From NCBI GenBank assembly GCA_041665405.1, contig JBAYIZ010000001.1:90618-154617 (forward strand): a stretch of DNA of 64,000 nucleotides, given 5' to 3'. The notes beneath the pieces are model-generated. The model was given only the letters and a program-made list of their open reading frames with translations. It was not told where the DNA came from and did not search any database. The first letter of the stretch is position 1. Every line of letters starts with the position of its first letter. Positions 534 to 54,711 of this stretch are shown here, piece by piece. A program made the translations under genes and the position numbers. The stretch comes from Candidatus Magasanikiibacteriota bacterium (GTDB taxonomy: Bacteria > Patescibacteriota > Patescibacteriia > Magasanikbacterales > GWA2-37-8).

Positions 534-3473
534 ATGAGCAAGAAAATACATCTCAAAATTTCTGGCATGCATTGCGAATCATGTGAAAAAATAATTTCAG
601 CTGAATTGGCTGGCGTGCCAGGAATAATTAGTTCACATATCGATGCCAAAGCCGGAAACGGGATTGTGGAAGTGGAAGATTCAGTGGTAGAGAGCGCGGT
701 CGTAGCGGCCATCAAAGTGGCTGGCTATGATTCGGAAATTTTACAGATAGAAAAACCAGAAATTGTAGAACCTCCAATAATTTTTGAAAAAAAGATTGTC
801 GATAGTCAGGCACCATTTAGAGTAAAATTGGAATCATCTACAGTGGCCGATGGCAAAATCAGCACCAATAATGGCGAACCAAATTTTACCGGAAAAATTA
901 CTCAAAATAAAAAAGGAGAGTTTGAAATTCCTCAGGGTCGTAATGATTTGGAAAAGATAGTGCAAAATCTATTTGATGCATCAAAGATGGGACAGTTGTT
1001 TGGAATGTTATCAGGAGATTCACATCAAACGAATTCTGCGCCAGCTGATCATTCGACGCACAATTTGCCAACTACCGCTTCGGTCGCCGTAAAAAGCAAA
1101 ACTGGCGATGAAAGTATAAATCTCAGTTTAGGTGGAATGCATTGTGCTTCGTGCTCTCTTTTGATTGAAAAAAGTTTGAAAAAAGTTCCGGGTGTAAAAC
1201 AAGCGCATGTAAATTTTGCAGCAGAAAAAGCCAGAATTATTTTTGATTCCAGTAAAGCGACTGTTGATAATTTTATCAAGGCGGTCAAAGACGCGGGCTA
1301 TAGTGCCGAGCTGTCTAGTAGTGATCCAGAAATCGATCGTCAGAAAAAAGCACAGGAAATAAAAGCTTTGAAAAAGAAATTTTGGTTTAGTTTTGTCTTT
1401 AGTGTACCGATGCTATATTTCATGATGTTCGATTTTGCCTCTTTTTGGCCAGGACGAGCAGTCATGCCTTACATCGGAATTATTTCATTGGTCTTAACTT
1501 TGCCGGTGCAATTTATTATCGGTGCCGGATTTTACAAAGGATTATGGAGTGGGTTGAAAATGAAAATGTTCAACATGGACAGTCTGATTGCTATCGGTAC
1601 CAGTACTGCCTTTTTTTATAGTGTCTGGCAATTTATTAATTATTGGATAATAAACAAATCAATCATTGGATTGAATGGCGATAAAATTCCAGAATTATAT
1701 TTTGAAACTGCCGCCTTTTTAATAACCTTTGTAATTTTAGGCAAATGGTTGGAAGCACGGGCTAAAGGCGGAACTTCGGAAGCAATAAAAAAATTAATGG
1801 GAATGCAACCAAAAACTGCCCGCGTGATTCGCAGTGGTGTGGAAAAAGATTTGTCGCTTGATGAAGTTGTGGTTGGTGATGTGGTAGTAGTCCGTCCAGG
1901 AGAAAAAATTCCGGTTGACGGAGAAGTAGTAAAAGGTAGTTCGAGTGTTGATGAAAGTATGTTGACGGGCGAAAGTATTCCAGTTGAAAAAAATGTTGGT
2001 GATAAAGTGGTAGGTGCAACTATAAATAAACATGGTAGTTTTGAATTTAAAGTGACCAAAGTTGGACAAGAAACCGCTCTGTCGCAAATTATTCGCTTGA
2101 TTGAAGATGCTCAAGGAAGTAAAGCGCCGATTCAAAATTTGGCGGATAATATTTCCGGTTGGTTTGTGCCTGCAGTTTTAATTATTGCGGCTTTAACATT
2201 TGTGATTTGGTTTTTCTTCTTAGGAGCCGGACTGACATTTAGTTTGATGGCCTTCACATCGGTTATCGTGATTGCCTGTCCATGTGCTCTAGGTTTGGCA
2301 ACACCAACGGCAATCATGGTAGGTACTGGTAAAGGGGCAGAATATGGCGTGTTAATAAAAGGTGGTGAACCACTTGAAGCCGCCTGCAAAGTAAAAGTAA
2401 TCGTTTTCGATAAAACCGGTACATTGACCAACGGTACACCAGAAGTGACCGACATTGTTCCGATGGGTCACTATGATGAAGATGAGGTGATGATAATGGC
2501 GGCGGGACTGGAGAAAACTTCCGAACATCCTTTGGCTGAAGCAATTATAAAATATACTCAAGAAGAATCAATTTTATTTGAGAGTGCGACAAATTTTAAA
2601 GCCATTCCTGGTCATGGAGTGGAAGGTACGATCAATGGTAAAAAATATTATTTTGGCAATCGAAAATTAATGACGGATGTGGTCAAAATTAGCATTGAAA
2701 ATGTAGAACGCAAAATGCGCAAACTCGAAGATGCAGGAAAGACTGCAATGATATTGGCCAATGAAACGGAAGTGATGGGGTTGATAGCCGTGGCGGATAC
2801 TATCAAAGAGAGTTCACTTGAAGCTGTACAACAACTTCAAAAACGTGGTTTACAAGTTTATATGATTACCGGCGACAACCGTCGTACTGCAGAAGCAATC
2901 GCCAAACAAGCGGGTATAAAAAATGTTTTGGCCGAAGTGTTGCCTCAAGATAAAGCCAATGAGATTAAAAAATTACAAACCAATTTAGCAACGACGACTG
3001 GCAAGTCGGAGTCCCGACTCATAGTCGGGATGGTGGGTGATGGTATCAATGATGCACCAGCTTTGGCTCAAGCTGACGTTGGCATTGCGATGGGGTCAGG
3101 GACTGATGTGGCGATGGAAACAGGTGGCATTGTAATTATCAAAAATGATTTGCGTGATGTACTCACCGCGATAGATTTGAGTAAAGAAACGATGGGCAAA
3201 GTAAAACAGAATATGTTTTTCGCTTTATTATATAATGTGATTGGTATTCCGATTGCGGCACGTATCTTTGTTTCATTTGGTTTGGTTCTCAAGCCAGAAT
3301 TAGCCGGACTGGCGATGGCTTTTAGTTCCATCTCAGTAGTTTCCAATTCGTTGTTACTCAAAAATTTTCGGCCAGGCAAAAGAAATTGGATTTCTATGAT
3401 GGCTCCGATAATTATGGTTATAATTTTTACTTTTATATTTTTGCAGTTTGGGCGATTGAGTGGAATGAAATAA
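534..3473 (+). CDS. copA: Copper-translocating P-type ATPase (P1B-type) with two N-terminal HMA domains
   Basis: [11 protein letters not shown] and [12 protein letters not shown] (two MxCxxC HMA motifs), CPC motif ([11 protein letters not shown]), DKTGT phosphorylation site (FDKTGTLT), and hinge [10 protein letters not shown]. 979 aa. Confidence 0.93.
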
Positions 3474-3583: not shown

Positions 3584-6376
3584 ATGTCATTTTTTACAAA
3601 ATTATTTGGCGATCCAAACGCCAAAGCAGTAAAAGAAATTTTGCCCATTGTTGAACAGGTGAATGCTTTTGAGGTAGAAATACAGAAGTTGTCTTTGGAA
3701 CAATTGAAAAATAAAACTACTGAATTCAAAGAACGTCTTGTCAAAGGTGAAACTCTAGAAGATCTATTACCAGAGGCTTTTGCGGTCGTTCGTGAAACTT
3801 CCAAGCGTGTCACCGGCATGCGTCATTTTGACGTTCAGCTTATCGGTGGTATTGCTTTGCATCGAGGCCAAATTTCTGAAATGCGCACGGGTGAAGGTAA
3901 AACTTTGGTAGCTACTTTGCCAATATATTTGAATGCACTCGCTGGACGAGGTGTTCATTTGGTAACGGTCAATGATTATTTGGCCAAACGTGATGCTGTT
4001 TGGATGAGTCAGATTTATGATGCTCTTGGTTTGAGTGTTGGTATTATTCAACAACAATTGGTTTCATATAAATACAATCCAAACAAGTTAAAAATTTTGG
4101 ATGTAAATGGTCAGGATGCGATGAGTGAAGGTGGTTCGATAGACAAAGAACGTGATGCCAAAGGAGCATACAAAGTAGAATATGAATATTTGGAAACTTG
4201 TTCTCGAAAAGAAGCCTATGCTTGTGATATCACATATGGGACCAACAATGAATTTGGTTTTGATTATTTGCGTGACAATATGGTGGGCAGTCTGGAAGAA
4301 ATGTCTCAGCGCCCATTTTATTTTGCTATCGTCGATGAAGTCGATTCTATTTTGATTGACGAAGCACGTACCCCATTAATTATTTCTGCCCCCGCAGAAG
4401 AAGCGGCCGAGATGTATTATAAGTTTGCGGAAATTGTGGCACGAATGGAATTGGACGTAGATTATAATGTTGATGAAAAAATGCGCGCTTCTACTTTGAC
4501 AGAAGCCGGTTTGAAAAAAGTAGAACAAGCGCTGAATGTAGAAAATATTTATGCCGAAGGCGGTATGACGATGGTGCACCACATCGAACAGGCTTTGCGT
4601 GCACGGGCATTGTTCAAACGAGACCGCGATTATGTAGTAGATAATGGAGAAGTTATCATCGTGGATGAATTTACCGGACGTAAAATGCCAGGCCGTCGTT
4701 ATAGCGAAGGTTTACATCAAGCTATCGAGGCACAAGAGCATGTAAAAATTCAGCGCGAAAGTCAAACTATGGCGACTATTACTTTCCAAAATTATTTCCG
4801 TTTGTATGAGAAGTTGGCTGGTATGACGGGTACGGCTGTTACGGAAGCGGAGGAATTTGCCAAGATTTATAAACTAGAAGTAGTGGTAATTCCAACCAAC
4901 AAAGATAATTTGCGTGTTGATCATCCAGATAGAATTTACAAAACTGAAGAAACAAAATATAAAGCCATCGCGCAAACTGTAAAGGAACTACAAAAAAAGG
5001 GACAGCCGGTTTTAATAGGTACTATTTCGGTAGAAAAAAATGAAGAATTGAGTTTGTACCTAGAACGCGAAGGCATCACACATGAAATTTTGAATGCGAA
5101 AAACCATGAGCGTGAAGGTGAAATTATCGCTCAAGCTGGACGAGCGGGAGCAGTAACTTTGGCTACCAATATGGCTGGTCGTGGTGTGGATATTATTTTA
5201 GGTGGCAATCCACCAGATAAGACAGAAGGTGACAAAGTACGTGCTGTGGGTGGATTATTTGTGATTGGTACCGAACGTCACGAAAGTCGTCGTATTGATA
5301 ATCAGTTGCGCGGTCGTGCGGCTCGTCAGGGTGACTCAGGTGAGACTCAGTTTTATCTATCTACTCAAGATGACTTGATGCGTATTTTTGCCGGTGATAG
5401 AATTCGCAGTGTGATGCAAACTTTGCGTGTGCCAGATGATATGCCGATTGAACAACGCTCGATTACCAAAATTATTGAATCTGCTCAGAAAAAAGTAGAA
5501 GGTTTTAATTTTGATTCTCGTAAACACTTGCTCGAATATGATGATGTGTTGAATCGTCATCGTGAAGTGGTGTATGGAAAACGTCGCCTAGTTTTGGAAT
5601 TGTTTGATAAACAAAAAAACAACGCTGTCACAGGAACTGTCATCCCCGTGAAAACGGGGATTCTTGAGGAAGAAAAGACCCTGCAATCTTTGATTTTGGA
5701 TATGATGGAAGCGGAAATAGAGCAGATTGTTTCGTTTCACACCAACACCGAAGACAAACACGAATGGAATATCAAAGAAATTGCTGAAGTGGTTGGTACT
5801 ATTTATCCAATAACTGAAGAAGAAAAAAATATCATATTAAATTTTGGCGAACACGGCGAACAAAAAATGCAAGCGGTGATTGAGCGCACCCATATTATTG
5901 AATATTTGACTCAATTAGCTAAAGAAAAATACCAGAAACTATTAGTAGCCAGAATTGACAATAAGGATTTACAGATTGAAATGGAAAAACAAATTTTATT
6001 ACGTTCAATGGACATGCTTTGGATTGATCATTTGGTAGCTGTAGATTATTTGCGCACCGGTATCGGTTTGCGCGGATATGGCCAACGTGATCCATTGGTT
6101 GAATACAAAAAAGAGACGTACCAGATGTTTAACGAGTTGCTTTCTGCCATGCAACATGAAGTGGTGTATGCGATTTTTAAAGTAAGTATCGGAATGGATA
6201 TGGCGCCAAGTGTAATGAAGAAAAATAATTTAATTTTCAAAGGTGCAGTACATGAGGGTGAAGTGGTGGATATAAATACCAAAGTTAAAAATGAACAGGG
6301 CGAAAAAATTGGCCGCAACGAACCATGCCCGTGTGGGAGTGGGAAGAAGTTTAAGAAGTGTCATATGAATGTTTAG
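3584..6376 (+). CDS. secA: Preprotein translocase ATPase SecA
   Basis: 930 aa. SecA N-terminus (MSFFTKLFGDPNAK...), DEAD-like motor motifs (DEVDSILIDEARTPLIIS), and the C-terminal Zn-binding CPCGSGKKFKKCH. Confidence 0.95.
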   Translation: MSFFTKLFGDPNAKAVKEILPIVEQVNAFEVEIQKLSLEQLKNKTTEFKERLVKGETLEDLLPEAFAVVRETSKRVTGMRHFDVQLIGGIALHRGQISEMRTGEGKTLVATLPIYLNALAGRGVHLVTVNDYLAKRDAVWMSQIYDALGLSVGIIQQQLVSYKYNPNKLKILDVNGQDAMSEGGSIDKERDAKGAYKVEYEYLETCSRKEAYACDITYGTNNEFGFDYLRDNMVGSLEEMSQRPFYFAIVDEVDSILIDEARTPLIISAPAEEAAEMYYKFAEIVARMELDVDYNVDEKMRASTLTEAGLKKVEQALNVENIYAEGGMTMVHHIEQALRARALFKRDRDYVVDNGEVIIVDEFTGRKMPGRRYSEGLHQAIEAQEHVKIQRESQTMATITFQNYFRLYEKLAGMTGTAVTEAEEFAKIYKLEVVVIPTNKDNLRVDHPDRIYKTEETKYKAIAQTVKELQKKGQPVLIGTISVEKNEELSLYLEREGITHEILNAKNHEREGEIIAQAGRAGAVTLATNMAGRGVDIILGGNPPDKTEGDKVRAVGGLFVIGTERHESRRIDNQLRGRAARQGDSGETQFYLSTQDDLMRIFAGDRIRSVMQTLRVPDDMPIEQRSITKIIESAQKKVEGFNFDSRKHLLEYDDVLNRHREVVYGKRRLVLELFDKQKNNAVTGTVIPVKTGILEEEKTLQSLILDMMEAEIEQIVSFHTNTEDKHEWNIKEIAEVVGTIYPITEEEKNIILNFGEHGEQKMQAVIERTHIIEYLTQLAKEKYQKLLVARIDNKDLQIEMEKQILLRSMDMLWIDHLVAVDYLRTGIGLRGYGQRDPLVEYKKETYQMFNELLSAMQHEVVYAIFKVSIGMDMAPSVMKKNNLIFKGAVHEGEVVDINTKVKNEQGEKIGRNEPCPCGSGKKFKKCHMNV
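5638..5663. repeat. GNRA-capped hairpin TCATCCCCGTG-AAAA-CGGGGAT embedded in-frame in secA. It belongs to a small repeat family also seen at 12574-12635, 42186-42205 and 46350-46374.
   Basis: Near-identical to the 12574-12597 copy over 24 of 26 nt, with a compensatory C-G to T-A change that preserves the stem. It encodes IPVKTGI within the SecA ORF. Confidence 0.45.
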
Positions 6377-6496: not shown

Positions 6497-8569
6497 ATGG
6501 CTAAGAATGCAAAACCGGTCGTCAGTTTGTCCCGTTCTCAGATAAAGTGGAGAGTATTGTGGATTGGTATATTATTGGTTGTTTGTGGGCTCATTGTGGC
6601 TCCAACTTATGCTAACAAAGGTGTTGATTGGGTAAACAACAAAGTTAATTTAGGTTTGCCACGTTTGCCAGACAAAGGCTTCAATTTAGGCCTAGATTTG
6701 CAAGGTGGCGCTCATTTGGTTTACCAAGCAGATACCACACAGGTGCCAGATGCCGATCGTGTTGACGCAGTTGAAGGTGTACGTGATGTTATCGAACGTC
6801 GTGTACGCGGTGGTCTAGGTGTTGCTGAACCATTGGTGCAAACTACCAAAGTCGGTGAGGATTTTCGTATCATCGTTGAATTGCCAGGTGTGACTGATGT
6901 AAATACTGCTATTAAAATGATCGGTGAAACTCCAGTTTTGGAATTCAAAGAAGAAAACAACGAACCTCCACGTACTTTAACTACGGAAGAAAAGAAACAA
7001 ATGGATGATTTCAACAAAGCGGCAGACAAAACAGCCAAACTTGCTTTGAAAGAAGTAGTGAGTGGTGTAGATTTTGCCACTGTGGTTTCCAAATATACTC
7101 AAGATGAAAAAAGTAAAAACAATGGTGGCGATTTAGGTTTTGTTACAGAAACACTTTATCCAGAAATTTTTACTTGGGCTAGTACCCATAAGGATGGTGA
7201 AGTAAGTAAAGAGTTGGTAAAAAGTTTTGAAGGCTTAAATATTTTAAAAAGAATTGGTGAACGTCAAGGTGAAAAACAAGTTGACGCGGCTCATATCTTG
7301 GTTTGTTATAAAGGTGCCGAGCGTTGTGATAACCCACTATATACTCAAGAAGAAGCCAAAACTAAAATTACTGAACTGAAAGCGAAAGCCAATGCTGAAA
7401 ACTTTTCTCAATTGGCCAAAGAATTTTCTACTGAACCAAATGCAAAAACAAGTGGTGGTGATTTAGGTAAATTTGGCAAAGGTCAAATGGTGCCTGAATT
7501 TGAAACGGCTGTTTGGGATGCACCAGTAGGTACTATTTCAGCTGTGGTAGAAACACAGTTTGGCTATCATATTATTTATAAGAAAGGCGAAGATTTTGCC
7601 AAAGAATATCAAGTGGCTCGTGTGTTTATTAAAACACAGCAAGAAGCTGATATTGTACCTCCAACAGATCAATGGAAAACCACCGGTTTGTCTGGTAAAC
7701 AGTTGAAACGAGCAGAAGTAACTCAGGATTCACAGACTGGTCAGACTCAGGTAAATTTGAATTTTGATGAAAATGGTACAAAACTATTTGCTGAAATAAC
7801 TGCAAGAAATGTTGGTAAACCGGTGGCTATTTATTTGGATGGTCAGCCAATTAGTATTCCAAAAGTAAATGAAGCAATCACAAGTGGTAGTGCAGTAATA
7901 TCTGGTGGATTTACTTTACTCGAAGCCAAACAACTTTCTCAAAGATTGAATTCTGGCGCATTGCCAGTGCCAGTTGAGTTGATTAGTCAACAAAAAGTAG
8001 ACGCTACTTTGGGTGTTGATTCATTGACCAAAAGTTTCCATGCTGGTTTGATTGGTTTGCTGGGCGTGATGTTATTCATGGTTATTTATTATCGTTTTCC
8101 AGGTTTGTTATCTGTATTTTCTTTGATAGTTTATGCATTACTAAGTTTGGCTACTTTCAAATTATTGGGAGTGACCATCACTTTGTCTGGTATCGCCGGT
8201 TTTATCTTGTCTATTGGTATGGCTGTGGACACCAACGTTTTGGTGTTTGAACGTCTAAAAGAAGAATTACGTTCTGGTAAAAATTTACATTCCGCTTCCG
8301 AGGAATCGTTCCGTCGCTCTTGGCCGTCTATTCGTGATGGTCATATTGCTACTTTGGTAAGTTGTGTATTCTTGGTCTGGTTTGGTACTGGTTTTGTGCA
8401 AGGTTTTGCTGTGACGTTGGCCATTGGTGTGTTGTTCAGTTTGTTCACCGCTATTGTGGCTACTCGCGCTGTCTCACGTCTGATTTTCAAATTCTTTAGC
8501 GAATATGGTAATTGGATGTTTTTGGGCCATGTTAAACCAGATTCTTCTTCTGAAATTATAAACAAATAA
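6497..8569 (+). CDS. secD: Protein-export membrane protein SecD carrying an inserted parvulin-type (PpiC) peptidyl-prolyl isomerase module in the periplasmic P1 head
   Basis: SecD motifs (GLDLQGGAHLVYQ..., VELPGVTDV..., and after aa ~400 TGLSGKQL...VAIYLDGQPISIPKV..., followed by 6 TM helices). Between aa ~155 and ~395 (nt ~6960-7680) there are parvulin signatures: GGDLGFV... and AAHILV...SGGDLGKFGKGQMVPEFE...TQFGYHIIYK. Confidence 0.85.
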   Translation: MAKNAKPVVSLSRSQIKWRVLWIGILLVVCGLIVAPTYANKGVDWVNNKVNLGLPRLPDKGFNLGLDLQGGAHLVYQADTTQVPDADRVDAVEGVRDVIERRVRGGLGVAEPLVQTTKVGEDFRIIVELPGVTDVNTAIKMIGETPVLEFKEENNEPPRTLTTEEKKQMDDFNKAADKTAKLALKEVVSGVDFATVVSKYTQDEKSKNNGGDLGFVTETLYPEIFTWASTHKDGEVSKELVKSFEGLNILKRIGERQGEKQVDAAHILVCYKGAERCDNPLYTQEEAKTKITELKAKANAENFSQLAKEFSTEPNAKTSGGDLGKFGKGQMVPEFETAVWDAPVGTISAVVETQFGYHIIYKKGEDFAKEYQVARVFIKTQQEADIVPPTDQWKTTGLSGKQLKRAEVTQDSQTGQTQVNLNFDENGTKLFAEITARNVGKPVAIYLDGQPISIPKVNEAITSGSAVISGGFTLLEAKQLSQRLNSGALPVPVELISQQKVDATLGVDSLTKSFHAGLIGLLGVMLFMVIYYRFPGLLSVFSLIVYALLSLATFKLLGVTITLSGIAGFILSIGMAVDTNVLVFERLKEELRSGKNLHSASEESFRRSWPSIRDGHIATLVSCVFLVWFGTGFVQGFAVTLAIGVLFSLFTAIVATRAVSRLIFKFFSEYGNWMFLGHVKPDSSSEIINK

Positions 8570-9489: not shown

Positions 9490-9507
9490 TACTAAAGATT
9501 CAAAAAC

Positions 9508-9540
9508 TCTCTCGCTTAAATCGGGGGAGTTTTTTCTTTT
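9508..9540 (+). terminator. Intrinsic terminator after secF
   Basis: ACTCTC-TCGCTTAAATCGG-GGGAGT hairpin followed by TTTTTTC. Confidence 0.5.
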
Positions 9541-9599: not shown

Positions 9600-9776
9600 A
9601 TGTCTGGTCACGGTCATAGCGAAAGTGGTATCCGCCATATGATTGCCTTTCTAGGCACATTGGTGACAGTGTTTGCCTTTTGGGGAGGTTATGTTTCGGG
9701 CGCCCAGGGTTGGTGGTGGACAGCTTTTGGTTTGATAATTGTTTACGGTGGAATATATAAAATTATCGACAATTAA
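9600..9776 (+). CDS. Small (58 aa) two-TM membrane protein, below the ORF-track length cutoff
   Basis: ATG at 9600 and stop at 9774-9776. Product MSGHGHSESGIRHMIAFLGTLVTVFAFWGGYVSGAQGWWWTAFGLIIVYGGIYKIIDN. Ends 3 nt before the 9780 ORF, suggesting operon coupling. Confidence 0.4.
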   Translation: MSGHGHSESGIRHMIAFLGTLVTVFAFWGGYVSGAQGWWWTAFGLIIVYGGIYKIIDN

Positions 9777-9779
9777 TCT

Positions 9780-11216
9780 ATGGAGCCGATTACTTTTTCA
9801 TCCACTTTTGGCTTTTCGATCAATTGGGAGTTTTGGTCTTGGATGTTTTCTCAGCCACCTGCCGATTTGATTGCATATTTGTTCGCCATTATTGGTTGGG
9901 TAATTTTGGTTTTGATTTGTGTTAGTTTGGGGTCACAACTGTTGGCGCTTTATCGAGCAAAAAAAGCGGATGGTCAGTGGGAGTGGGTGTTGTTGGCCGT
10001 CGATGTACCGCCATTATTTATTCAATCACCAAAAGCCGTAGAGCAGATTTTTGCTCATCTTAGTGGGGCAAAAGTTAGTATTCGTTTGTCAGAAAAATAC
10101 TGGATTGGTAAACGACAGAAAAATTTTAGTTTTGAAATAATTTCTATTGAAGGTTATATACAGTTTTTAATTCGTACTGAAATAGCTTATCGCGATCTAG
10201 TAGAGGCGGCGGTTTACGCTCAGTATCCAGAGGCAGAAATTACCGAGGTGGAGGATTATGTGGATATGATTCCAGGATCTTACCCAAGTGCAACCCACCA
10301 TATGTTTGGAGTAGAATTCCAATTAGCTGATGTTGATGCTTATCCTATTCGTACTTATCCAAACTTTGAATATAAAATTAGTAAAGACGAAGTTTTTAGC
10401 GATCCAATGGCAGCGATTTTGGAAAATTTTTCACGTATTGGGCATGGCGAACATTTTTGGTTACAGATCATTATTGAACCAGTCGGTAATGATTGGAAAA
10501 CAAAAGGTATCCAGTTGGTAAAGGATATTATTGCCGGTCATATTGGTCATCATGGAAATTTCTGGGGTGATGTAGTAGCTATGATTGGGAATATTCCGCT
10601 GGCTATTATGAAGGAATTTTTTAAATATTTGAATGCCTCAGAACATGAAGAAGAGGAAGTTCACAAGGAAATGCCTGGCAAATTGACCGATGTATCTCCA
10701 GGTGGAAAAAGCACCATCGAGGCGATTGAGGACAAGATTGCCAAATTAGGTTTCAAAACCAAGATTCGCGCTTTGTATGTGGCGAGAAATGAAGTTTTTA
10801 ATCCTACCCGTTGTGTAGATGGTTTTATTGGTTCACTTAACCAATTTCATATTCAAAGTCGCAATGCAATTATCCCGCGTTTTATTACGCATACTCATTT
10901 TCTTTTTTACAACCACATGAGAGAGATCTGGGTACAAAATAAATTTTTTAAAGCTTTTGCCAAGAGAAAAATAAAAGTGGGTGGTACTCCTTATATTTTA
11001 AATATCGAAGAGCTGGCAACACTGTGGCATTTCCCATTACCGTTTGTGAAGACTCCGCTTGTACAAAAGGCTGGTGCCAAACGTGGCGAACCACCAATGA
11101 ACTTGCCGATAGAAGTGGAATCTGGACCGCTAAGACCAAAGGTGAGGCCGACTGGACAGGTTGGGGAGACTGTAGAGGTTCCGGAGCAGGAACCAGAGGA
11201 ATTGTTATATGGATAG
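9780..11216 (+). CDS. ATPase-less paralog of the N-terminal (membrane plus middle) domain of the T4SS coupling-protein-like gene at 21153-23714
   Basis: Alignable blocks with the 853-aa protein: AQYPEAEIT/AQYPHAEIT, DPMAAILENFSRI/DPLVAILNPLSKM, FWLQIIIEPVGNDWKTKGIQLVKDI/ALIQFIVRPATSHWRKQGVHMIRDI, ATLWHFP/AGLWHMP. It stops exactly where the Walker-A ATPase begins in the paralog. Confidence 0.75.
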   Translation: MEPITFSSTFGFSINWEFWSWMFSQPPADLIAYLFAIIGWVILVLICVSLGSQLLALYRAKKADGQWEWVLLAVDVPPLFIQSPKAVEQIFAHLSGAKVSIRLSEKYWIGKRQKNFSFEIISIEGYIQFLIRTEIAYRDLVEAAVYAQYPEAEITEVEDYVDMIPGSYPSATHHMFGVEFQLADVDAYPIRTYPNFEYKISKDEVFSDPMAAILENFSRIGHGEHFWLQIIIEPVGNDWKTKGIQLVKDIIAGHIGHHGNFWGDVVAMIGNIPLAIMKEFFKYLNASEHEEEEVHKEMPGKLTDVSPGGKSTIEAIEDKIAKLGFKTKIRALYVARNEVFNPTRCVDGFIGSLNQFHIQSRNAIIPRFITHTHFLFYNHMREIWVQNKFFKAFAKRKIKVGGTPYILNIEELATLWHFPLPFVKTPLVQKAGAKRGEPPMNLPIEVESGPLRPKVRPTGQVGETVEVPEQEPEELLYG

Positions 11217-11234
11217 AGAGGTGGAAAACAAAAA

Positions 11235-11335
11235 ACACCACCTACATAATGACTTTTTCGCTTTTTTCACCCGCGAGGGTGAAAGGATGAGCCTCGGGCT
11301 CATAACCCGCTCAAAAGTAATTATGTAGGTGGTGT
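11235..11335. repeat. Copy 1 of a ~62-nt GC-rich structured element (core 11253-11315) nested inside a 16-bp inverted repeat (ACACCACCTACATAAT / ATTATGTAGGTGGTGT)
   Basis: Core CTTTTTCGCTTTTTT-CACCC-GCGA-GGGTG-AAAGG-ATGAGCC-TCG-GGCTCAT-AACCCGCTCAAA is shared with 21043-21104. Hairpin 1 shows compensatory substitutions (CACCC/GGGTG versus TTGCCC/GGGCAA) around a GCGA tetraloop. Confidence 0.6.
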
Positions 11336-11373
11336 TTTTTTGTTTGTGTTTAGCGAAAATAGTGGGTGTGACA

Positions 11374-11402
11374 TTGACAAAAGAGGTGATTTGTGTTATA
11401 CT
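11374..11402 (+). promoter_or_regulatory. Sigma70-type promoter (TTGACA, 17-nt spacer, extended -10 TGTTATACT) driving the high-GC small ORF
   Basis: TTGACAaaagaggtgatttgtgtTATACT, followed by a structured ~140-nt leader (three hairpins) before the ATG at 11547. Confidence 0.5.
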
Positions 11403-11479
11403 GATTTGTTATTTGAAAATTTAATCAAATTTGACCGGTATCTAATTGTGTTGAGTAATCTCAATAGAATTTGGTACCG

Positions 11480-11960
11480 GTTTCGAGTGTCTTTCCCGCC
11501 GCATACTTTGCGGCCCATCCGGCGCTCATTGCGCCAGAGGTACGAGATGAGCCTGTTTTTCTTCTTCGCTCTGATGTCGATCGTCGCCAACGCTTTGACC
11601 TTCAAGGGGAAGAAATTCTCCTGGTGGGGGTTCGCGTTTGTCTTCGTGGGAGGGGCGCTCGCGGCTGTCGCGTTTTCGGAGAGCCGGGAACTGCCGATCC
11701 TCGACCACTCGTGGCAGGTCGCCGCCAGCTGGGCAGGCCTGTCCGGACTGATCGGACCGGTCGTTCAGGTGGCGTGGTTCTCCACGAACCCGCCCAAGTG
11801 CTCCGAGTGCGGGCGCAGCTGTTCCACCCACGAGAAGGTGGCGCGCATCTAGGTTTTTTGGACTTTTTCCTCCCCGAGTAAAATCGGGGGCAGTGTCGCA
11901 GACGGTCGAGCTAGTTTATTTAGCTCCCATCTGTGCCTGAAAAAAGTCCGCAATCCCTGA
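11480..11960. other. Compositionally anomalous high-GC cassette 1
   Basis: Abrupt shift from AT-rich host sequence to GC-rich sequence with GC-ending codons. Bounded by a host-like promoter at 11374 and the terminator at 11993. Confidence 0.6.
11547..11852 (+). CDS. Small (101 aa) membrane protein encoded by a GC-rich foreign-looking gene
   Basis: ATG at 11547 with an AGAGG Shine-Dalgarno 10 nt upstream. Product MSLFFFFALMSIVANALTFKGKKFSWWGFAFVFVGGALAAVAFSE... has 2-3 TM helices and a CSECGRSC tail. Codon usage is GC3-rich, unlike its neighbours. Confidence 0.6.
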   Translation: MSLFFFFALMSIVANALTFKGKKFSWWGFAFVFVGGALAAVAFSESRELPILDHSWQVAASWAGLSGLIGPVVQVAWFSTNPPKCSECGRSCSTHEKVARI

Positions 11961-11992
11961 GTGTCTAAAATATTTAGATATTGAGGAAAACA

Positions 11993-12022
11993 AAAAATCA
12001 CCATTTAATTGGTGATTTTTTG
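11993..12022. terminator. Bidirectional intrinsic terminator
   Basis: AAAAAATCACCA-TTTAAT-TGGTGATTTTTT, lying between the + strand cassette and the - strand gene ending at 12034. Confidence 0.65.
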
Positions 12023-12033
12023 TTTGTGTTTTT

Positions 12034-12555
12034 TTATTTTGTTTCTTGAACAATAGTTTTTGGTGATAGATTTTTTATCATTTCATATCCGCCTACCAGA
12101 CAAGTTACAAAAAAGATATTACCTAATAATTCATTTCGGAAAAAGGGAAGTGCCATATAATAACTTTGAACTAAGCCAGATAAATCGTGTGTGTACATTG
12201 TTCCAAAAGCCCAGACAGCTGTGTTGGTCAAAAGAAAGAAAACTACACTACCAGCGAATGTACTCAATGCAACATTGGTGAATTTAATATTATTGCGAAT
12301 TGCGCGTCCGATTAATACCACTAACAAGAAACCGATATACACCGAAGCCATAATATAAATACTATAAAATCCAATAAAGATGTCGCTGATAAACATTGCA
12401 ACTATTGGTAACCATAATGATTCTTTTTTTGTTAAATACAGTCCACCAAATAAAGCGATGGCACCAATAGCGGTAAAATTTGCTGGGTGCGGTACAAAAC
12501 GAGTAGCGATGGCTAGGATGATGAGAAGATAAGTGAGGACATTTTTGTTTATCAT
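12034..12555 (-). CDS. Small polytopic membrane protein (5-6 TM) resembling an ECF-transporter S-component. It could be a corrinoid- or vitamin-specific substrate-capture subunit.
   Basis: 173 aa, wholly hydrophobic helices, size and topology typical of ECF S components. It lies downstream on the same strand as the DUF4430 / transcobalamin-like genes. The functional assignment is inference. Confidence 0.4.
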   Translation of the reverse strand: MINKNVLTYLLIILAIATRFVPHPANFTAIGAIALFGGLYLTKKESLWLPIVAMFISDIFIGFYSIYIMASVYIGFLLVVLIGRAIRNNIKFTNVALSTFAGSVVFFLLTNTAVWAFGTMYTHDLSGLVQSYYMALPFFRNELLGNIFFVTCLVGGYEMIKNLSPKTIVQETK

Positions 12556-12573
12556 AGGTTATTATTTTTTAGT

Positions 12574-12635
12574 GTCATTCCCGTGAAAACGGGAATCAAT
12601 ATTAAATGCTGGATTCCCGTTTTCACGGGAATGAC
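12574..12635. promoter_or_regulatory. Leader/operator with two GNRA-type hairpins (TTCCCGT-GAAA-ACGGGAA and TTCCCGT-TTTC-ACGGGAA) whose outer 24-nt arms are mutually complementary
   Basis: GTCATTCCCGTGAAAACGGGAATC ... GATTCCCGTTTTCACGGGAATGAC. It lies between the -10 box at 12645-12650 and the start codon at 12555, so it is transcribed as the 5' leader of the membrane-protein gene. Confidence 0.55.
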
Positions 12636-12644
12636 GTGAACTAT

Positions 12645-12673
12645 ATTATACCATATTGCGCAGTAGTCTCAAA
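12645..12673 (-). promoter_or_regulatory. Sigma70-type promoter (minus strand) for the 12034-12555 gene
   Basis: On the minus strand: TTGAGA, 17-nt spacer, extended -10 TGGTATAAT. Confidence 0.5.
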
Positions 12674-14544
12674 CCTAGGTAAACACCTACCGCTAGAGCA
12701 CTTCCACCAGTTATTGCCAAGATTCTTTTGGCATGTTTTTTGGTGGGAGTATCCAAAGGTAAATCATCAATAATTTTATTTTCATTTTTAGTAGTTTCAG
12801 CTGAGTTCAAAGTAAACGTGGATGTTGGTATAGTTGTTTTTGGCTTTTTGGTTTCTGTTCTATTAGTCGTAGTCACTGGTTTGTTAGTTTTTGTATTTGT
12901 TATTTTTATTCCAGCAACTTGATTATTTATAGAAGAAATATTTACAGTAGTAGTTGCGACTGTTAATGTTGAAGTGGTAGCTAGAGTAGTGGTAGTGGTT
13001 AGAGTTGTTGTGGCGACTGTTGTAGTGACTATTAATGTACTTGTCACGTTTAAAGTGGTAGAGACTACTGAAGGTAAATTTGCCGAACCGCCGCCTTGGT
13101 TTTGATTATTATTGCTTTTTAATTGTGGTTCCAAAATTACCGGCCAATTTTTTCTCAACAAAGCTGGCACAGCATGTTTAGTAGCAAACCAATCAACACC
13201 ATCACTACTCCAAGCAGAGTTGTAGTGATCAGTACCATCTAGATTGGTAAGAATATACCAAGGATTTTTTCCAGCCGAATTAAACCAGTCACTTTGTGTT
13301 TTTCCTAAAGCGTTTATTCCCATTACCACCCAGCTGGTAGTGAGGGCATCAGAAGTGTTATTACACCAAGTGACATCATAACACCAACCACCATCGGAGA
13401 GTTGTGCACTTTTTAAATATTGTTCCGCTTTGGTAAAAATATTTTCATCAATATTTACCCCTTTATTTTGAACATATTTCAAGGCGTTAATAGCCGCCCC
13501 AGTAATATCTGAACTGGCCGCTCCCCAAGAAATAAAGGCGCCACTAGTCTGGTTTTGGTTGGCTGTAATTCCGTTTATGGTTGCTAAGACAGCTGGAGAG
13601 TCATTGCTTTCGTCGATCGCTTTCAAGGCAATTAGTCCAAAGACGTCATCATTTATTCCATCTTCTCCATAAGCGCCACTAACAACACACGTGTCATTGA
13701 TTTTATTTTTTAGATCAATAATTTTGGTATCAGTTTTGGATATGCCAGAAGCCAGAAGAGCTAAAATGTGGCGGGGATAACCGGCACATAAATTATTGTC
13801 AGAGGCGGAGGTAATAGTAAAGTTATGTATGTAATCTTTTAGGCTGGTAGTGCTATTTTTAATCGTATCAGAAAATATTCCTTTACTACCAAATGTCATT
13901 GCCGCCCAATCAGAGATTCCACTATCCAAAATCATTCCATCAGCACTTTGTTTTGATTTTAAGAAATTGACTAATTTGTTTACGCTATCGTTTATCTGAC
14001 TGTCAGTAATTAAAATGTTTGAATTGCCTCCACCACCACTGTTATCTCCACCAGAGTTGTCGCCAGAGTCATCAGTAGAAGTAGCTGTGGTAATAGTTGA
14101 TGTGGTCAAAGAAAAATCGCTATAATCTGTATCGTTGAATTCACGCACTTGAAAAAAATATTCAGTATTTGGTGTTAAATCAAAAAAGGTGGTACTAGTA
14201 TTGATAGTGCTAAAACTGGATGTAATAGTGGAACTTACTTCATATGAGGTGGCATCGATTATGTCGTTCCAAAATAGAGTAATAGTAGATGTCGTTGCTG
14301 AGATAGTCGTGATGTTTGGAGTGGAGGTGGTCTTTAGGATATTTTCAGTTGTTGTAGAAAAATCTGCAGCAGGTGGTGTTGTAGTGGATACAAGATCCAA
14401 GATAGTGGTAGTCGTAGAAGCAACAATGTCGTCAGTTATTGGTGTATCAAGAATTTCCGCATTAGCGCTACTAATGTTTCCAACTAGTATTACTATTGAA
14501 AAAAAAGTTAAAATTACTATTATTTTAAAATTTAGAGTGTTCAT
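12646..14544 (-). CDS. Cell-surface protein with signal peptide, fibronectin-III-like domain, prenyltransferase/terpene-cyclase-like alpha/alpha-toroid domain (QW motifs), Thr-rich stalk and a C-terminal TM anchor
   Basis: N-terminal signal peptide (MNTLNFKIIVILTFFSIVILVGNISSANA). FN3-like segment (TEYFFQVREFN). QxxDGGW-type motifs (KSAQLSDGGWCY, KQSADGMILDSG, QTSGAFISWG). Long T/S-rich low-complexity tract. C-terminal hydrophobic helix plus KR tail. Confidence 0.75.
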   Translation of the reverse strand: MNTLNFKIIVILTFFSIVILVGNISSANAEILDTPITDDIVASTTTTILDLVSTTTPPAADFSTTTENILKTTSTPNITTISATTSTITLFWNDIIDATSYEVSSTITSSFSTINTSTTFFDLTPNTEYFFQVREFNDTDYSDFSLTTSTITTATSTDDSGDNSGGDNSGGGGNSNILITDSQINDSVNKLVNFLKSKQSADGMILDSGISDWAAMTFGSKGIFSDTIKNSTTSLKDYIHNFTITSASDNNLCAGYPRHILALLASGISKTDTKIIDLKNKINDTCVVSGAYGEDGINDDVFGLIALKAIDESNDSPAVLATINGITANQNQTSGAFISWGAASSDITGAAINALKYVQNKGVNIDENIFTKAEQYLKSAQLSDGGWCYDVTWCNNTSDALTTSWVVMGINALGKTQSDWFNSAGKNPWYILTNLDGTDHYNSAWSSDGVDWFATKHAVPALLRKNWPVILEPQLKSNNNQNQGGGSANLPSVVSTTLNVTSTLIVTTTVATTTLTTTTTLATTSTLTVATTTVNISSINNQVAGIKITNTKTNKPVTTTNRTETKKPKTTIPTSTFTLNSAETTKNENKIIDDLPLDTPTKKHAKRILAITGGSALAVGVYLGLRLLRNMV

Positions 14545-21005: not shown

Positions 21006-21042
21006 ATATTATTATTACATTTATGGCAGTCTGTCGGATTGT

Positions 21043-21104
21043 CTTTTTGCTTTTTTTGCCCGCGAGGGCAAAAGGATGAGCCTCGGGCTCATAACCCGCT
21101 CAAA
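21043..21104. repeat. Copy 2 of the ~62-nt GC-rich structured element
   Basis: CTTTTTGCTTTTTTT-GCCC-GCGA-GGGC-AAAAGG-ATGAGCC-TCG-GGCTCAT-AACCCGCTCAAAG. Lies ~50 nt beyond the stop of the 21153-23714 gene and upstream of the dnaX start. Confidence 0.6.
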
Positions 21105-21152
21105 GAAAACCCGCCAGCCTGTGACGTACTGTGGCATATTTTCAGCTATATT

Positions 21153-23714
21153 CTACAGTGTTGCCTCACTTAAATCAATATGCGCTGGCATCGGCGTTCC
21201 TAGGGCAGATCGCTCCATTATTTCCGCTTCTACTATCTCACGTGGGCGACCATATTTGAGACGAGAAAGTTCTTTGATTGCTTCAGCTAGTTCTTTGTTG
21301 CCAGGTTTAGGAGGATAGGTAGTCATACTAAATGGTTTGGCGGCGGTGTTGTTGATAAGCAATTTGCAATAGGCGGTATATTGTTCGACATTGACCAAAT
21401 CATAAGCAGAAAAAACTGGAGCAAATTCTTTTTGTAAAATATCAGCATCTTCTACACCAATACGGAAGGACACGATAGTACCCGCGTTACCAAGCACCGC
21501 ATCACGCACTGTGGATTTGCCTTTGTTATCTTCCAACTGTTTCATGTATTGGTGAGCAATAATCAGTTCCAAACGATATTTACGAGCCTCAGAAAGAATC
21601 GTGGCGATAGAATCGGTAATAAAGTTTTGAAACTCATCAATGTATAAATAAAAATCATGGCGTTCTTCTTCTGGAATAGCGGCTCGTTCCAGAGCGGCCA
21701 TCTGTAACTTTGACACGATAATCATACCCAATAAATTGGAGTTGATCTCACCGGTCAAACCTTTGGCCAAATTTACAATTAAAATTTTCTTTTGATCCAT
21801 CACTTCACGGAAACTAAAACCGGAATGACTTTGGCCGATAATATTTCGCACCATGGCATTTTCAGTAAAGCGGCCTACTTTGGAAATCAAATAGCCCAAC
21901 ATTTCTGATTTGTGGAAGTCCGAAGTCTTGGCCATTTCTTTATCCCAGAAAGCCATAACTACCGGATCCTTTAATTTCTTTTTCCATTTGGCGACATACG
22001 TATCGTCGGTAAACATACGAGGCACTTCGGCAATGGTACCAGGATTTTCTAAGTCGGACATCAAGGTCAACATCACGTTGCGCATCTGATGCTCAAACAT
22101 CGGGCCGATCATCGAAGGATCAGTTACCATTTTGTAAAAAATGGAAATCATTTCTTGAGTAGCAAAATCTTTTTGACTTTCGGTTTTTACTTCCAACATA
22201 TTCAGACCAATCGGACGATCAGTGTCGGAAGGATTAAAATAAATAACATCATCAGCACGTTCTTTGGGCACGTGTTGCAAAACATATTCTGCAAAATCAC
22301 CATGCGGATCGACAATACAAACACCTTCGCCGTTTTGCACATCTTGAATAGCCAAATTTTGGATAAAAACAGATTTTCCACCACCGGATTTACCGACAGT
22401 ATATAGATGGCGGCGACGATCGCTACGGGTCATGCGCACGATGGTTTCTTCGCCGCGATAGACAGCTCGGCCCAAAATAATACCTTCTTTTGGCATATTG
22501 ACTGGTGGTGGAGCTTTGCGTGCACCAAGCCAGTTGATGTGAGGTGTTTCAGTATTTGGAATAGGCATGTGCCATAAGCCAGCAAACTCTTCGGTGTTGA
22601 CCACCATATAGTGTTTGGTATCCATCGAACGATAAATCGAATCACGAATCAATTTGTTTTGTTTGCGCGGTACGGCCGCTCCAAATGAGTTTCCGTAACG
22701 ATAAATGTTGTATTGGCTAAAAGAATTCACCATATTTTCCAGGTTGAGTTGAGCTGTTTGTTTGTTGTCGGCAGAACTGATCAAACGCACAGTAATTTCT
22801 AGCCCACCATGTGAAATTTTTTCTTCCATACTCTTTACCATCTCTTCTTCCATCTGAGTGAGGTGATAATCTTGAGTGTGGCTTTGTTTGGCTGGGTCTT
22901 TACTTTTTGGAAATAATGTTTTTTTCCATTTAACCAAAGAACGCATAAAGGCTCCGCGTCTGGCGACATATTCGAATTTTTGTCCTTCACGAATATCGCG
23001 AATCATATGGACACCCTGTTTGCGCCAATGAGAAGTGGCTGGTCTAACAATAAATTGGATTAGGGCGCCATCATTTTGAGACATTTTACTAAGTGGATTT
23101 AAAATAGCTACTAACGGATCACTATCCATTTTTTTGAATGTTTTTAGAGGAAACGCCGACCTGCTCTTCAAATTCAAATAGGCGCCAACTATATGGCTGG
23201 TTGGTTTGAAAATATTATAATCATTTTCTGGAGTAATCTCTGCGTGCGGATATTGAGCATGGATCTGTTGTTCGACAAATTCCTTCCAACGGTCGGGGAC
23301 AGCGACATAAAAAGAAATAGTGCCGTCTTTCACTACTATTTCAAAAGCGATATGATCATTGCGTCCGTATAGCCACTTGGTAAATCCTTTTTCGCCTTTT
23401 AAGCCAGCGATAGAGGAAAACATAGTTTCCGCCGTGGCGATATATTCGCGCGTTTGGTTTATATTTTGTTCTTGGTTTCCCTGATTTTGTGCACCTTCAT
23501 TCTTTTTTTCTTTTGGAACACGGACCAGGATGATAACCTTGTGAAAGGCCTTGCTTTCCAATCCTCTAGCATGCAAAATAGCACGTAATAAAAACAAAAG
23601 TCCGAACAGAATGATTAGCGCTAAAATAAAAAGCATGATAGCCAGAAAAATCGGATTGGCAATCCCATCGGAAATCATTTGAATTATATAATTTAAAAAG
23701 CTAACGGAATCCAT
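21153..23714 (-). CDS. Type IV secretion coupling-protein-like ATPase (TraD/TraG/VirD4 family) with an N-terminal membrane domain
   Basis: N-terminal TM helices. Walker A VGKSGGGKS, CIVDPHGDF, Walker B/arginine region FYLYIDEFQNF ... ARKYRLELIIAHQ. 853 aa. Confidence 0.65.
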   Translation of the reverse strand: MDSVSFLNYIIQMISDGIANPIFLAIMLFILALIILFGLLFLLRAILHARGLESKAFHKVIILVRVPKEKKNEGAQNQGNQEQNINQTREYIATAETMFSSIAGLKGEKGFTKWLYGRNDHIAFEIVVKDGTISFYVAVPDRWKEFVEQQIHAQYPHAEITPENDYNIFKPTSHIVGAYLNLKSRSAFPLKTFKKMDSDPLVAILNPLSKMSQNDGALIQFIVRPATSHWRKQGVHMIRDIREGQKFEYVARRGAFMRSLVKWKKTLFPKSKDPAKQSHTQDYHLTQMEEEMVKSMEEKISHGGLEITVRLISSADNKQTAQLNLENMVNSFSQYNIYRYGNSFGAAVPRKQNKLIRDSIYRSMDTKHYMVVNTEEFAGLWHMPIPNTETPHINWLGARKAPPPVNMPKEGIILGRAVYRGEETIVRMTRSDRRRHLYTVGKSGGGKSVFIQNLAIQDVQNGEGVCIVDPHGDFAEYVLQHVPKERADDVIYFNPSDTDRPIGLNMLEVKTESQKDFATQEMISIFYKMVTDPSMIGPMFEHQMRNVMLTLMSDLENPGTIAEVPRMFTDDTYVAKWKKKLKDPVVMAFWDKEMAKTSDFHKSEMLGYLISKVGRFTENAMVRNIIGQSHSGFSFREVMDQKKILIVNLAKGLTGEINSNLLGMIIVSKLQMAALERAAIPEEERHDFYLYIDEFQNFITDSIATILSEARKYRLELIIAHQYMKQLEDNKGKSTVRDAVLGNAGTIVSFRIGVEDADILQKEFAPVFSAYDLVNVEQYTAYCKLLINNTAAKPFSMTTYPPKPGNKELAEAIKELSRLKYGRPREIVEAEIMERSALGTPMPAHIDLSEATL

Positions 23715-42857: not shown

Positions 42858-42890
42858 AAGCTAATAAATTTGTCTGATAAAACAGACAAT

Positions 42891-46349: not shown

Positions 46350-46374
46350 TGTCATCCTCGCGAATGCGGGGATC
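46350..46374. repeat. GC-rich hairpin TCATCCTCGC-GAAT-GCGGGGAT of the same TCATYCC...GGRAT hairpin family
   Basis: GTCATCCTCGCGAATGCGGGGATC, immediately upstream of a TATATAAT -10-like box for the 46401 operon. Confidence 0.35.
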
Positions 46375-54559: not shown

Positions 54560-54711
54560 CAGCCTTCGCGCTGTGTGGGAGTTTCGGTCCTAGACCGAAG
54601 CGACTCCCGCACTACGCGGGGGAGTGTGCTGTGAGAGGTACGAGACAGTCTCCGACGGTTGGCAACTTCGCTGACCTGAGGAAAAGGGTTTCTTTTGGAG
54701 GATACGTCCAG

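Follow-up and report, generated by a model that had tools for sequence, protein, structure and literature searches.

What would a bacterium keep one half of a coupling-protein-like ATPase for? The question is raised by a stretch of 64,000 nucleotides (hereafter the window; contig JBAYIZ010000001.1, about 38% GC) from a genome of Candidatus Magasanikbacteria (Patescibacteria, or Candidate Phyla Radiation, CPR). One of its open reading frames (ORFs), ORF A, corresponds to the N-terminal half of another, ORF B, whose C-terminal half is a P-loop ATPase resembling the coupling proteins (T4CPs) of type IV secretion systems (T4SSs); a structured element follows ORF A. Here we report that ORF A is an intact member of a large standalone family, that of the Pfam domain DUF8128, and that its relation to the N-terminal half of ORF B is, judged by sequence comparison, that of an ancient paralog. 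Newly noticed for ORF A are a likeness of its predicted domain to the N-terminal domain of VirB4, a small probable partner protein and a conserved pairing with ORF B.

ORF A, ORF B and the domain they share

The features that matter for this comparison are the following.

9780-11216, plus strand: ORF A, ATG start, 478 aa, a standalone DUF8128 protein and ATPase-less paralog of the N-terminal half of ORF B
9858-9971, plus strand: N-terminal membrane anchor of ORF A, aa 27-64, a single long helix in the AlphaFold2 model, followed by YRAKK
9984-11024, plus strand: globular alpha/beta DUF8128 domain of ORF A, aa 69-415, predicted local distance difference test score (pLDDT, AlphaFold2) mostly 80-90
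10992-11117, plus strand: most conserved linear motif of ORF A, YILNIEELATLWHFPLPFVKTPLVQKAGAKRGEPPMNLPIEV, aa 405-446, common to ORF B
21153-23714, minus strand: ORF B, 853 aa, a transmembrane (TM) helix, a DUF8128 domain and a T4CP-like P-loop ATPase
22482-23648, minus strand: part of ORF B homologous to ORF A, aa 23-411 (BLASTP, hhalign)
21429-22466, minus strand: ATPase domain of ORF B, aa 417-762 (Pfam, Foldseek)

Residues 86-445 of ORF A align with residues 94-410 of ORF B at 24% identity (BLASTP, 121 bits, E=2e-33). A profile of 66 sequences related to ORF A (A-type) matched one of 43 sequences related to ORF B (B-type) with a probability of 99.8% and E=1.6e-27 over 364 columns (hhalign, A30-446 on B23-411). 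The alignment begins in the membrane helix (A30/B23), where the anchor helix of ORF A is placed on the TM helix of ORF B, and extends to A446/B411. The initial annotation had claimed an N-terminal similarity between the two proteins, and both methods bear it out over the N-terminal 411 residues of ORF B. Its further claim that ORF A stops at the domain boundary, before the Walker A motif, holds as well: the homology stops at B411, the Pfam matches of the ORF B ATPase begin at residue 417 and Walker A lies at 441-448, so that ORF A ends exactly at this boundary. Moreover, the gene had been read as not frameshifted and not obviously a pseudogene, in agreement with thousands of homologs that are intact and equally long and with a tblastn search in which no ATPase remnant was found after 11216; the ATPase half of ORF B returned nothing in 11100-12700 (best E=22) and only ORF B itself in the whole window. 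The description of ORF A as a truncated paralog of ORF B stands as far as the missing ATPase is concerned, but not in the sense of a local truncated copy. Indeed, ORF A and ORF B are only about 25% identical, whereas A-types from distant genomes are 34-47% identical to ORF A, and the split must therefore be old; ORF A belongs to a family of its own.

This family is large. ORF A is matched at 100% identity by a protein that a Candidatus Magasanikbacteria metagenome-assembled genome (MAG) lists as hypothetical, and a word-indexed search returned 3,572 homologs, the best 120 of which are 428-502 aa long and 53-85% identical to ORF A; the domain precomputed on 119 of these 120, including the identical protein, is PF26449, that is, DUF8128. 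In an exhaustive search of 1.84 billion cluster representatives, ORF A-like clusters (50% identity) numbered 1,781 at E<=1e-3 and 535 at E<=1e-30. The best 150 of the 1,781 clusters consist entirely of short forms, 272-691 aa in length, with a match that in most cases ends near ORF A residue 445. ORF A is under purifying selection, and 75 columns are invariant among the 66 A-type sequences, most densely in LATLWHFPLPFVKTP...K..EPP..LP. Within the conserved, proline-rich motif the invariant positions are N408, E411, A413, W416-P419, P421, V423, K424, P426, K434, E437, P439, L442 and P443, and hhalign places this motif on ORF B 367-411, the linker that leads into the ATPase domain of ORF B. The motif is followed, as far as 11213, by a variable acidic tail, and AlphaFold2 confidence is low over aa 426-466. 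At the other end of the protein, the YRAKK stretch and the positive-inside rule suggest that everything beyond the anchor helix is cytoplasmic. DUF8128 is catalogued in Pfam but uncharacterised, and we found no mention of it in the literature; a PADLOC search with ORF A gave no match.

The C-terminal half of ORF B carries a Walker A motif, GKSGGGKS (aa 441-448, at 22371-22394), and a Walker-B-like YLYIDEF (aa 689-695). It matches the Pfam families TrwB_AAD_bind (E=8.5e-12; 45 bits against a cut-off of 20.5), T4SS-DNA_transf (E=2.6e-9), TraG-D_C and DUF87. The whole-protein T4CP models of NCBIfam all score far below their cut-off (46 bits versus 366), as do its VirB4/TraC models, which match the P-loop only (E 4e-4 to 7e-4). 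The Pfam family CagE_TrbE_VirB matched neither ORF A nor ORF B, and in PADLOC only generic HerA/mad8 ATPase matches were obtained for ORF B. The B-type family combines DUF8128 with TrwB_AAD_bind, DUF87, T4SS-DNA_transf and TraG-D_C and is itself tightly conserved, the best 120 of its 1,705 matches being 72-91% identical to ORF B. The whole architecture is also found in phrog_5156 (E=5e-93 over B86-836), the N-terminal part of which is matched by ORF A (E=6e-15), and in the Bacillus phage G protein gp156 (E=2e-45 over B93-818). These two differ in being viral, and the ORF B architecture is therefore not confined to Patescibacteria; no close relative of ORF B was found in viral contigs.

Predicted folds, partners and gene neighbourhood

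The AlphaFold2 model of ORF A (pLDDT 73, predicted TM-score (pTM) 0.67) was compared with the PDB using Foldseek. The top seven matches were all TrwK, the VirB4 protein of R388 (E 1.7e-4 to 3.7e-4, query TM-score (TMq) 0.30-0.36), and those that followed were a hundredfold weaker. For the ORF B model (pLDDT 67, pTM 0.44), the best match was full-length TrwK/VirB4 (E=1.5e-11 over about 850-960 columns), but with a root-mean-square deviation above 20 A; next came TrwB, aligned with the ATPase part of ORF B (E=1.4e-8, 20% identity, target TM-score (TMt) 0.55). According to these matches, the DUF8128 domain shared by the two proteins would be VirB4 (TrwK) N-terminal-domain-like and the motor of ORF B coupling-protein (TrwB/VirD4)-like. 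ORF B would thus show the two-domain layout of VirB4, an N-domain followed by an ATPase, with an ATPase closest to those of coupling proteins, and a Pfam domain of unknown function would be linked to a known structural module. The link to VirB4 rests on predicted structures of moderate quality, since sequence methods do not see it: a sequence search of the PDB gave nothing for the A-type profile, and ORF B matched the P-loop stretch of TrwB only. The initial annotation had taken the shared region for the membrane plus middle domain of TraD/VirD4. This assignment has to be replaced, as the region is DUF8128, with a predicted fold like that of the VirB4/TrwK N-domain, and is missing from canonical coupling proteins. 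The N-terminus of canonical T4CPs is short and has two TM helices, and these proteins are not known to contain a DUF8128 domain.

How far the likenesses go can be seen from three known systems. VirB4 (TrwK of R388) is the best structural match of the globular domain of ORF A and, at full length, that of ORF B. It differs from them in that no sequence similarity is detectable, that ORF A has no ATPase and a TM helix of its own fused to the domain, and that no VirB3, VirB6 or VirB8 genes lie nearby. TrsD of pGO1/pSK41 and its homologs in Patescibacteria are, like ORF A, standalone and motor-less, their likeness to a T4SS ATPase being limited to its N-terminal part. However, TrsD is 227 aa long and immediately precedes virB4 (trsE) in a T4SS operon, whereas ORF A has 478 aa and is paralogous to a T4CP-like protein, not to VirB4; the A-type profile matched TrsD of pSK41 with an hhalign probability of 0.2%, a comparison of low power because the target is a single sequence. 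As for TrwB, VirD4 and TraD, the ATPase half of ORF B matches both their families (TrwB_AAD_bind, T4SS-DNA_transf and TraG-D_C) and the TrwB structure, whereas ORF A has none of the parts that define a T4CP: Walker A is absent from it, and with it the P-loop NTPase with Walker A and Walker B motifs. Nor is the gene context that of a coupling protein, with no relaxase, virB3/6/8 or pilin genes near ORF A or ORF B in the window. Their neighbours are housekeeping genes (dnaX, a C39 peptidase gene, CorA, cysS and secDF), and likewise in relatives.

Each of the two genes is preceded by a short ORF.

9600-9776, plus strand: 58-aa ORF with two predicted TM helices, MSGHGHSESGIRHMIAFLGTLVTVFAFWGGYVSGAQGWWWTAFGLIIVYGGIYKIIDN, stop 3 nt before the ATG of ORF A
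23723-24241, minus strand: 172-aa ORF directly upstream of ORF B with an 8-nt gap, charged, one hydrophobic helix

Orthologs of the first, 52-60 aa long and ending 3-8 nt before the DUF8128 start, are present in related loci (L002, L019, L020, L021, L116 and L118-L121) and share the motif RH.I.F...GY.SG..GWWWT..G...Y...Y. All Magasanikbacteria loci examined have the small ORF abutting their A-type gene; it is kept at a locus whose A-type is 47% identical to ORF A (L116) and not at one with 37% identity (L117). It matched nothing in Pfam, PHROG or PADLOC. Its size, its two hydrophobic helices and its position abutting a gene for a VirB4-N-domain-like protein would fit a VirB3, for which there is no family match. 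The small ORF and ORF A are apparently translationally coupled, and the small protein is a probable partner of ORF A. The 172-aa ORF, for which no family match was found (Pfam, PHROG and PADLOC included), has a 164-aa counterpart at the same position beside the ORF B ortholog of L019 and is a possible partner of ORF B.

The pairing of A-type with B-type genes is conserved in the Magasanikbacteria clade. In the window, L019 and L021, the small ORF and the A-type gene are followed by 7-10 kb of variable genes and then, on the opposite strand, by C39 peptidase, dnaX and the B-type gene, and in the window and L019 the ORF of about 170 aa comes next after ORF B. L020 ends inside dnaX and agrees with the same order, and L002 (A-type) and L008 (B-type) lie on one 222-kb contig. 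In this convergent, conserved neighbourhood the unit formed by the small ORF and ORF A is 7-12 kb from ORF B. In addition, 13 identical longest-contig values are common to the lists of A-type and B-type matches. Pairing of a full-length with a truncated protein in related genomes, which the initial annotation had proposed as something to look for, thus holds within Magasanikbacteria, while distant A-types have no ORF B within 10 kb, and the conserved neighbourhood supports a partner role only within this clade. A second linkage concerns the Sec system. secD, with its fused peptidyl-prolyl isomerase (PPIase) domain, and secF lie directly upstream of the small ORF-ORF A unit in the window, L002, L020, L021, L116 and L118-L121, and directly upstream of the A-type gene in L117, where the small ORF is absent. 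Altogether secDF is immediately upstream in 9 of 10 related loci, including both distant ones, the exception being L019, where the A-type gene comes after mur and penicillin-binding protein (PBP) genes; in several of these loci secA is found a few genes further upstream. In the window, secF is followed by a terminator-like hairpin (9502-9534), and the small ORF has an extended -10 promoter-like site of its own.

Two observations on the flanks of the unit may be added. The SecD gene (6497-8569) encodes an inserted PPIC-type PPIase domain, a fusion kept in all related loci examined. On the other side, the slot after ORF A is hypervariable (11340-12030 in the window, 11440-12930 in L002, 11678-14179 in L019): in the window it holds a 101-aa membrane ORF of about 60% GC (11547-11852) with a strong promoter-like site of its own (11374-11402), in L002 other GC-rich ORFs, and in L019 a diversity-generating retroelement (bAvd and reverse transcriptase).

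Possible roles of ORF A

The VirB4 structure provides a precedent for pairing through N-domains only. Its N-domain of about 400 aa, located at the membrane, mediates dimerisation and binds VirB3, a two-TM protein that wraps the domain (PMC9259494). In Patescibacteria, the ATPase-less, VirB4-N-domain-like TrsD is the most abundant T4SS component; its homologs are mostly encoded next to virB4, and one of them is essential in S. epibionticum (PMC12102498). The same survey counted 5,713 T4CP homologs in 2,918 Patescibacteria genomes, about 2 per genome and mostly far from virB4, and suggested that they may have been exapted for another function (PMC12102498). ORF B fits this class of T4CP homologs.

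We therefore favour, at a rough probability of 45%, a role of ORF A as a motor-less scaffold or adaptor that would pair with ORF B via N-domain contacts, the small ORF being VirB3-like. By analogy with VirB4, ORF A would scaffold the ORF B machine on the cytoplasmic side of the membrane, taking the "outside" position beside an ORF B hexamer through its N-domain, as the outer VirB4 subunit does. The small two-helix protein might act as a VirB3-like membrane tether, and ORF A would in addition be tethered by its own helix. The motif WHFPLP...PPxNLP, which in ORF B leads into the ATPase, could dock in trans; the linker is the best-conserved part of ORF A although it has no ATPase to link, which argues for a binding function of this kind.

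Several observations weigh against this proposal. No sequence method ties DUF8128 to VirB4, TrsD or any PDB chain, the match between the folds of ORF A and VirB4 is moderate (E about 2e-4, TM-score 0.30-0.36, model pLDDT 73), and the small ORF has no match to a VirB3 family in Pfam. The putative contact between ORF A and ORF B is drawn from the VirB4 analogy. Distant A-types (37-47% identity, L116 and L117) keep secA/secDF and have no B-type gene within 10 kb, so that the deepest conserved linkage of ORF A is with Sec genes and not with ORF B. Moreover, the small ORF and ORF A, with their own promoter-like region and the terminator, are not in an operon with ORF B, and in the same genomes A-types evolve about twice as fast as B-types (57-80% versus 74-91% identity).

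It is the Sec linkage that sustains the first alternative, in which ORF A and its small membrane partner would form an accessory of Sec export independent of ORF B, a cytoplasmic platform beside SecDF. We regard this as possible but rather unlikely. The linkage to secDF does hold down to 37-47% ORF A identity, with secA near in several loci and no B-type within 10 kb in L116 or L117. However, the terminator after secF and the separate promoter-like site split the two units, in L019 the A-type gene follows mur/PBP genes without secDF, and a conserved gene order can reflect history where genomes are small and rearrange slowly. In addition, nothing in the fold points to Sec, whereas both paralogy and fold point to ATPases of the T4SS type.

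Somewhat less probable still is that ORF A is the equivalent of TrsD, serving a canonical Patescibacteria VirB4 system encoded elsewhere rather than ORF B. The abundance of TrsD-like proteins in Patescibacteria and the essentiality of one of them in S. epibionticum (PMC12102498) would fit such a role, as would the predicted match of the ORF A fold to the VirB4 N-domain. Yet the closest detectable relative of ORF A is the N-domain of ORF B, no virB4, virB3, virB6 or pilin gene was found near the A-type gene in any locus examined (about 10 loci for virB4), and hhalign found no match between the A-type profile and TrsD or TrsE of pSK41, single-sequence targets that give this comparison low power.

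As a decoy or negative regulator, ORF A would titrate the membrane partners of ORF B or cap its oligomers, keeping the ATPase inactive. In favour of this, it shares with ORF B the domain, the membrane topology and the linker motif, and it evolves faster than ORF B. But it has a conserved small partner ORF of its own, more in keeping with a structural subunit than with a titrator, and simple decoys seldom come in families so large and old; we consider this reading improbable. Finally, a decaying remnant of a duplicated ORF B gene, a pseudogene or a recent truncation, as the look of a full-length gene and a half-length copy in one window might superficially suggest, can be discarded given the lack of a downstream ATPase remnant, the existence of thousands of intact homologs as long as ORF A, the 75 invariant columns and the A-B identity of only about 25%.

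A wider reading may also be considered, which we put forward as speculation and think rather doubtful. ORF A, its 58-aa partner and ORF B could form a minimal VirB3/VirB4-like ATPase complex of the inner membrane, exapted by Patescibacteria for non-conjugative transport, with the motor-less DUF8128 subunit "outside", around an ORF B hexamer, and this might explain the roughly two orphan T4CP genes per genome. The complex might, for example, move nucleic acids or proteins where epibiont and host meet, perhaps in a coupling with Sec. Independently of this, the structured element described below could represent a new class of structured RNA or single-stranded DNA module colonising terminators. 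Patescibacteria carry thousands of coupling-protein-like ATPase genes distant from T4SS loci (PMC12102498). For this orphan machine our proposal offers a testable architecture: a VirB4-like N-domain joined to a T4CP-like motor, and a motor-less family with a small membrane partner.

A dispersed structured element and other features of the window

The element that follows ORF A occurs twice in the window.

11225-11345, plus strand: copy 1, with a 33-bp outer stem; model match 11244-11324, 98.6 bits; 61-nt repeat core 11255-11315
21033-21113, plus strand: copy 2, between the ORF B stop and the dnaX start and antisense to both; 98.6 bits

In copy 1, arms at 11225-11257 and 11313-11345 form the 33-nt stem, preceded by an A-run and followed by T7, and enclose a core with two small hairpins, the conserved part being an 81-nt three-way junction. 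Its folding energy is -60.3 kcal/mol (z=-9.0 against shuffles). Located after the ORF A stop, it looks like a bidirectional terminator, but the 55-nt structured loop is non-canonical for an intrinsic terminator. The 61-nt core recurs beside the 3' end of ORF B at 21044-21104 with 92% identity and two compensatory changes; in copy 2 the outer stem is imperfect, no T-run follows and z is -2.7. T-runs were counted in at least 39 of 91 copies, a crude measure as A- and T-runs pair with each other in the stem extension.

The structured element is real, uncatalogued and supported by covariation. A covariance model aligned 93 copies, in which 95.5% of the cells are paired and 27 of 31 pairs change on both sides; the resulting score for covariation, 0.477, is not attained by any of 500 shuffles (0.116), and slid controls do not exceed 0.082. 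This alignment is fitted to the model, and the covariation of the second hairpin depends on it, whereas that of the outer stem and first hairpin was already present in an ungapped MAFFT alignment of 16 copies that predates the model. The consensus reads yTTTTCGC-TTTTTT-[5 nt]-GCGA-[5 nt]-AAAGG-ATGAGCC-loop-GGCTCAT-AACCCGC-TCAAA within a long variable stem, the GCGA loop (85/93) and AACCC (90/93) being near-invariant. Neither strand stands out as the functional one, as the two inner helices have balanced G-U and A-C counts (11 versus 10) and the mismatches of the outer stem are concentrated in an internal loop. Rfam gave no match in the window at gathering score, and at E<=10 only spurious microRNA and leader matches arising from the long hairpin. 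Some divergent copies (45-74 bits) have altered second hairpins, at L010 3438-3519 and at L083 1298-1377 (plus) and 1407-1487 (minus); the two copies in L083 stand back to back, inverted and about 30 nt apart.

A scan of metagenomes yielded 15 element loci, and a scan of genomes with a looser pattern 94 stretches, all in Magasanikbacteria MAGs, some of them mislabelled as Gammaproteobacteria; no copy was found in viral contigs. The element is confined to a Magasanikbacteria clade, with about 15-20 copies per genome (17-19 listed in each of two MAGs). At loci L025, L026, L032, L039 and others it is found in MAGs titled "uncultured Gammaproteobacteria"; two such MAGs hold contigs with DUF8128 genes of the Magasanikbacteria type (CAZHYJ01, 121,039 bp, and CAZXEV01), and the taxonomic labels of at least these two look wrong. 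Copies lie at the 3' ends of genes, co-directional in sense 29 times (+E+), between convergent genes 21 times (+E-), co-directional in antisense 16 times (-E-) and between divergent genes twice (-E+). Both orientations can occupy the same place: between copy 2 and its counterpart in L008, which is sense to the B-type gene, the core is inverted while flanks and arms are homologous, and the same flip separates L003/L007 from L017 between a conserved gene and ychF. Arm matches between the window and L008, compared by hand, were 23/28 against 22/28, numbers that do not discriminate between an inversion of the loop only and one of the whole hairpin.

The initial annotation had reported a conserved structured element after ORF A. 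The element itself is confirmed, with its z of -9.0 and a covarying repeat family, but what is conserved is the repeat family and not its presence at this locus, and it is not tied to these genes. Among about 100 copies in about a dozen MAGs, the only locus outside the window that adjoins a DUF8128 gene is that of the ORF B ortholog (L008/L074), and the others follow ychF, prfB, tsaC, pnp and further genes. No copy follows the A-type gene in 8 relatives, the three closest of which (80-85% identity) have plain short terminators there; in this lineage the element has replaced the ordinary terminator of ORF A. According to this distribution and to the copies missing in relatives, the element is a dispersed repeat comparable to repetitive extragenic palindromic (REP) sequences and not a regulator of ORF A or ORF B. 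A gene-specific cis-regulatory RNA of DUF8128 genes would explain why the only two copies within the 64 kb lie beside the two paralogs, for which the chance is about 1e-3 in a rough estimate that assumes some 55 gene-end sites and two random copies, and why a relative (L008/L074) has the B-adjacent copy too. It is nevertheless very improbable, as only that one orthologous locus among the copies elsewhere adjoins a DUF8128 gene, copy 2 is antisense to ORF B while the L008 copy is sense, the A-type genes of the 8 relatives lack the element, and ORF B and dnaX are contiguous (9-12 nt) in L019 and L021. The flanking of both paralogs in the window is left as an unexplained coincidence.

With REP sequences and bacterial interspersed mosaic elements (BIMEs) the element shares its multiple copies, its intergenic position at gene 3' ends in both orientations, its hairpins, often terminator-like, and its restriction to a lineage. 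It differs from them in that what is conserved is a three-way junction of 81 nt, enclosed by a long variable stem, and not a simple palindrome of about 35 nt. In the two cases inspected of a gene flanked by copies, both genes were housekeeping (tsaC-like and pnp), and neither encoded a REP-associated tyrosine transposase (RAYT/Y1). We found no REP-like or structured element described in the literature for these bacteria, and a repeat associated with terminators could help to study transcription termination or genome dynamics in these uncultured organisms.

A few further features of the window deserve mention. A 1,679-aa ORF (46919-51958, plus strand) has no Pfam match. A second dispersed palindromic repeat, TGTCATYCCCGTGAAAACGGGRAT, is found at 5638-5661, 12573-12597 / 12612-12635 and 46350-46373, one perfect 24-nt inverted pair of it lying after a DUF6580 gene. 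The sequence GGTGnTTTTTTGTTTGTnTTT recurs after three terminator-like hairpins (11331-11353, 12011-12033 and 56612-56634). The transfer-messenger RNA gene (42889-43294, minus strand) has an unusually long predicted tag, ANLFSKAKIAFTNAFIGEGCCNFAPVAA. Lastly, two ORFs on the plus strand (25511-26563 and 54631-56352) consist of Cys-rich CDDGNxCTxDxC repeats (Pfam Dicty_CTDC, E=1e-34 and 1e-50) and lie in islands of 55-62% GC (25.4-26.6 kb and 52-56.5 kb) in this genome of 38% GC; their products may be secreted or adhesin-like, and the islands may have been horizontally acquired.

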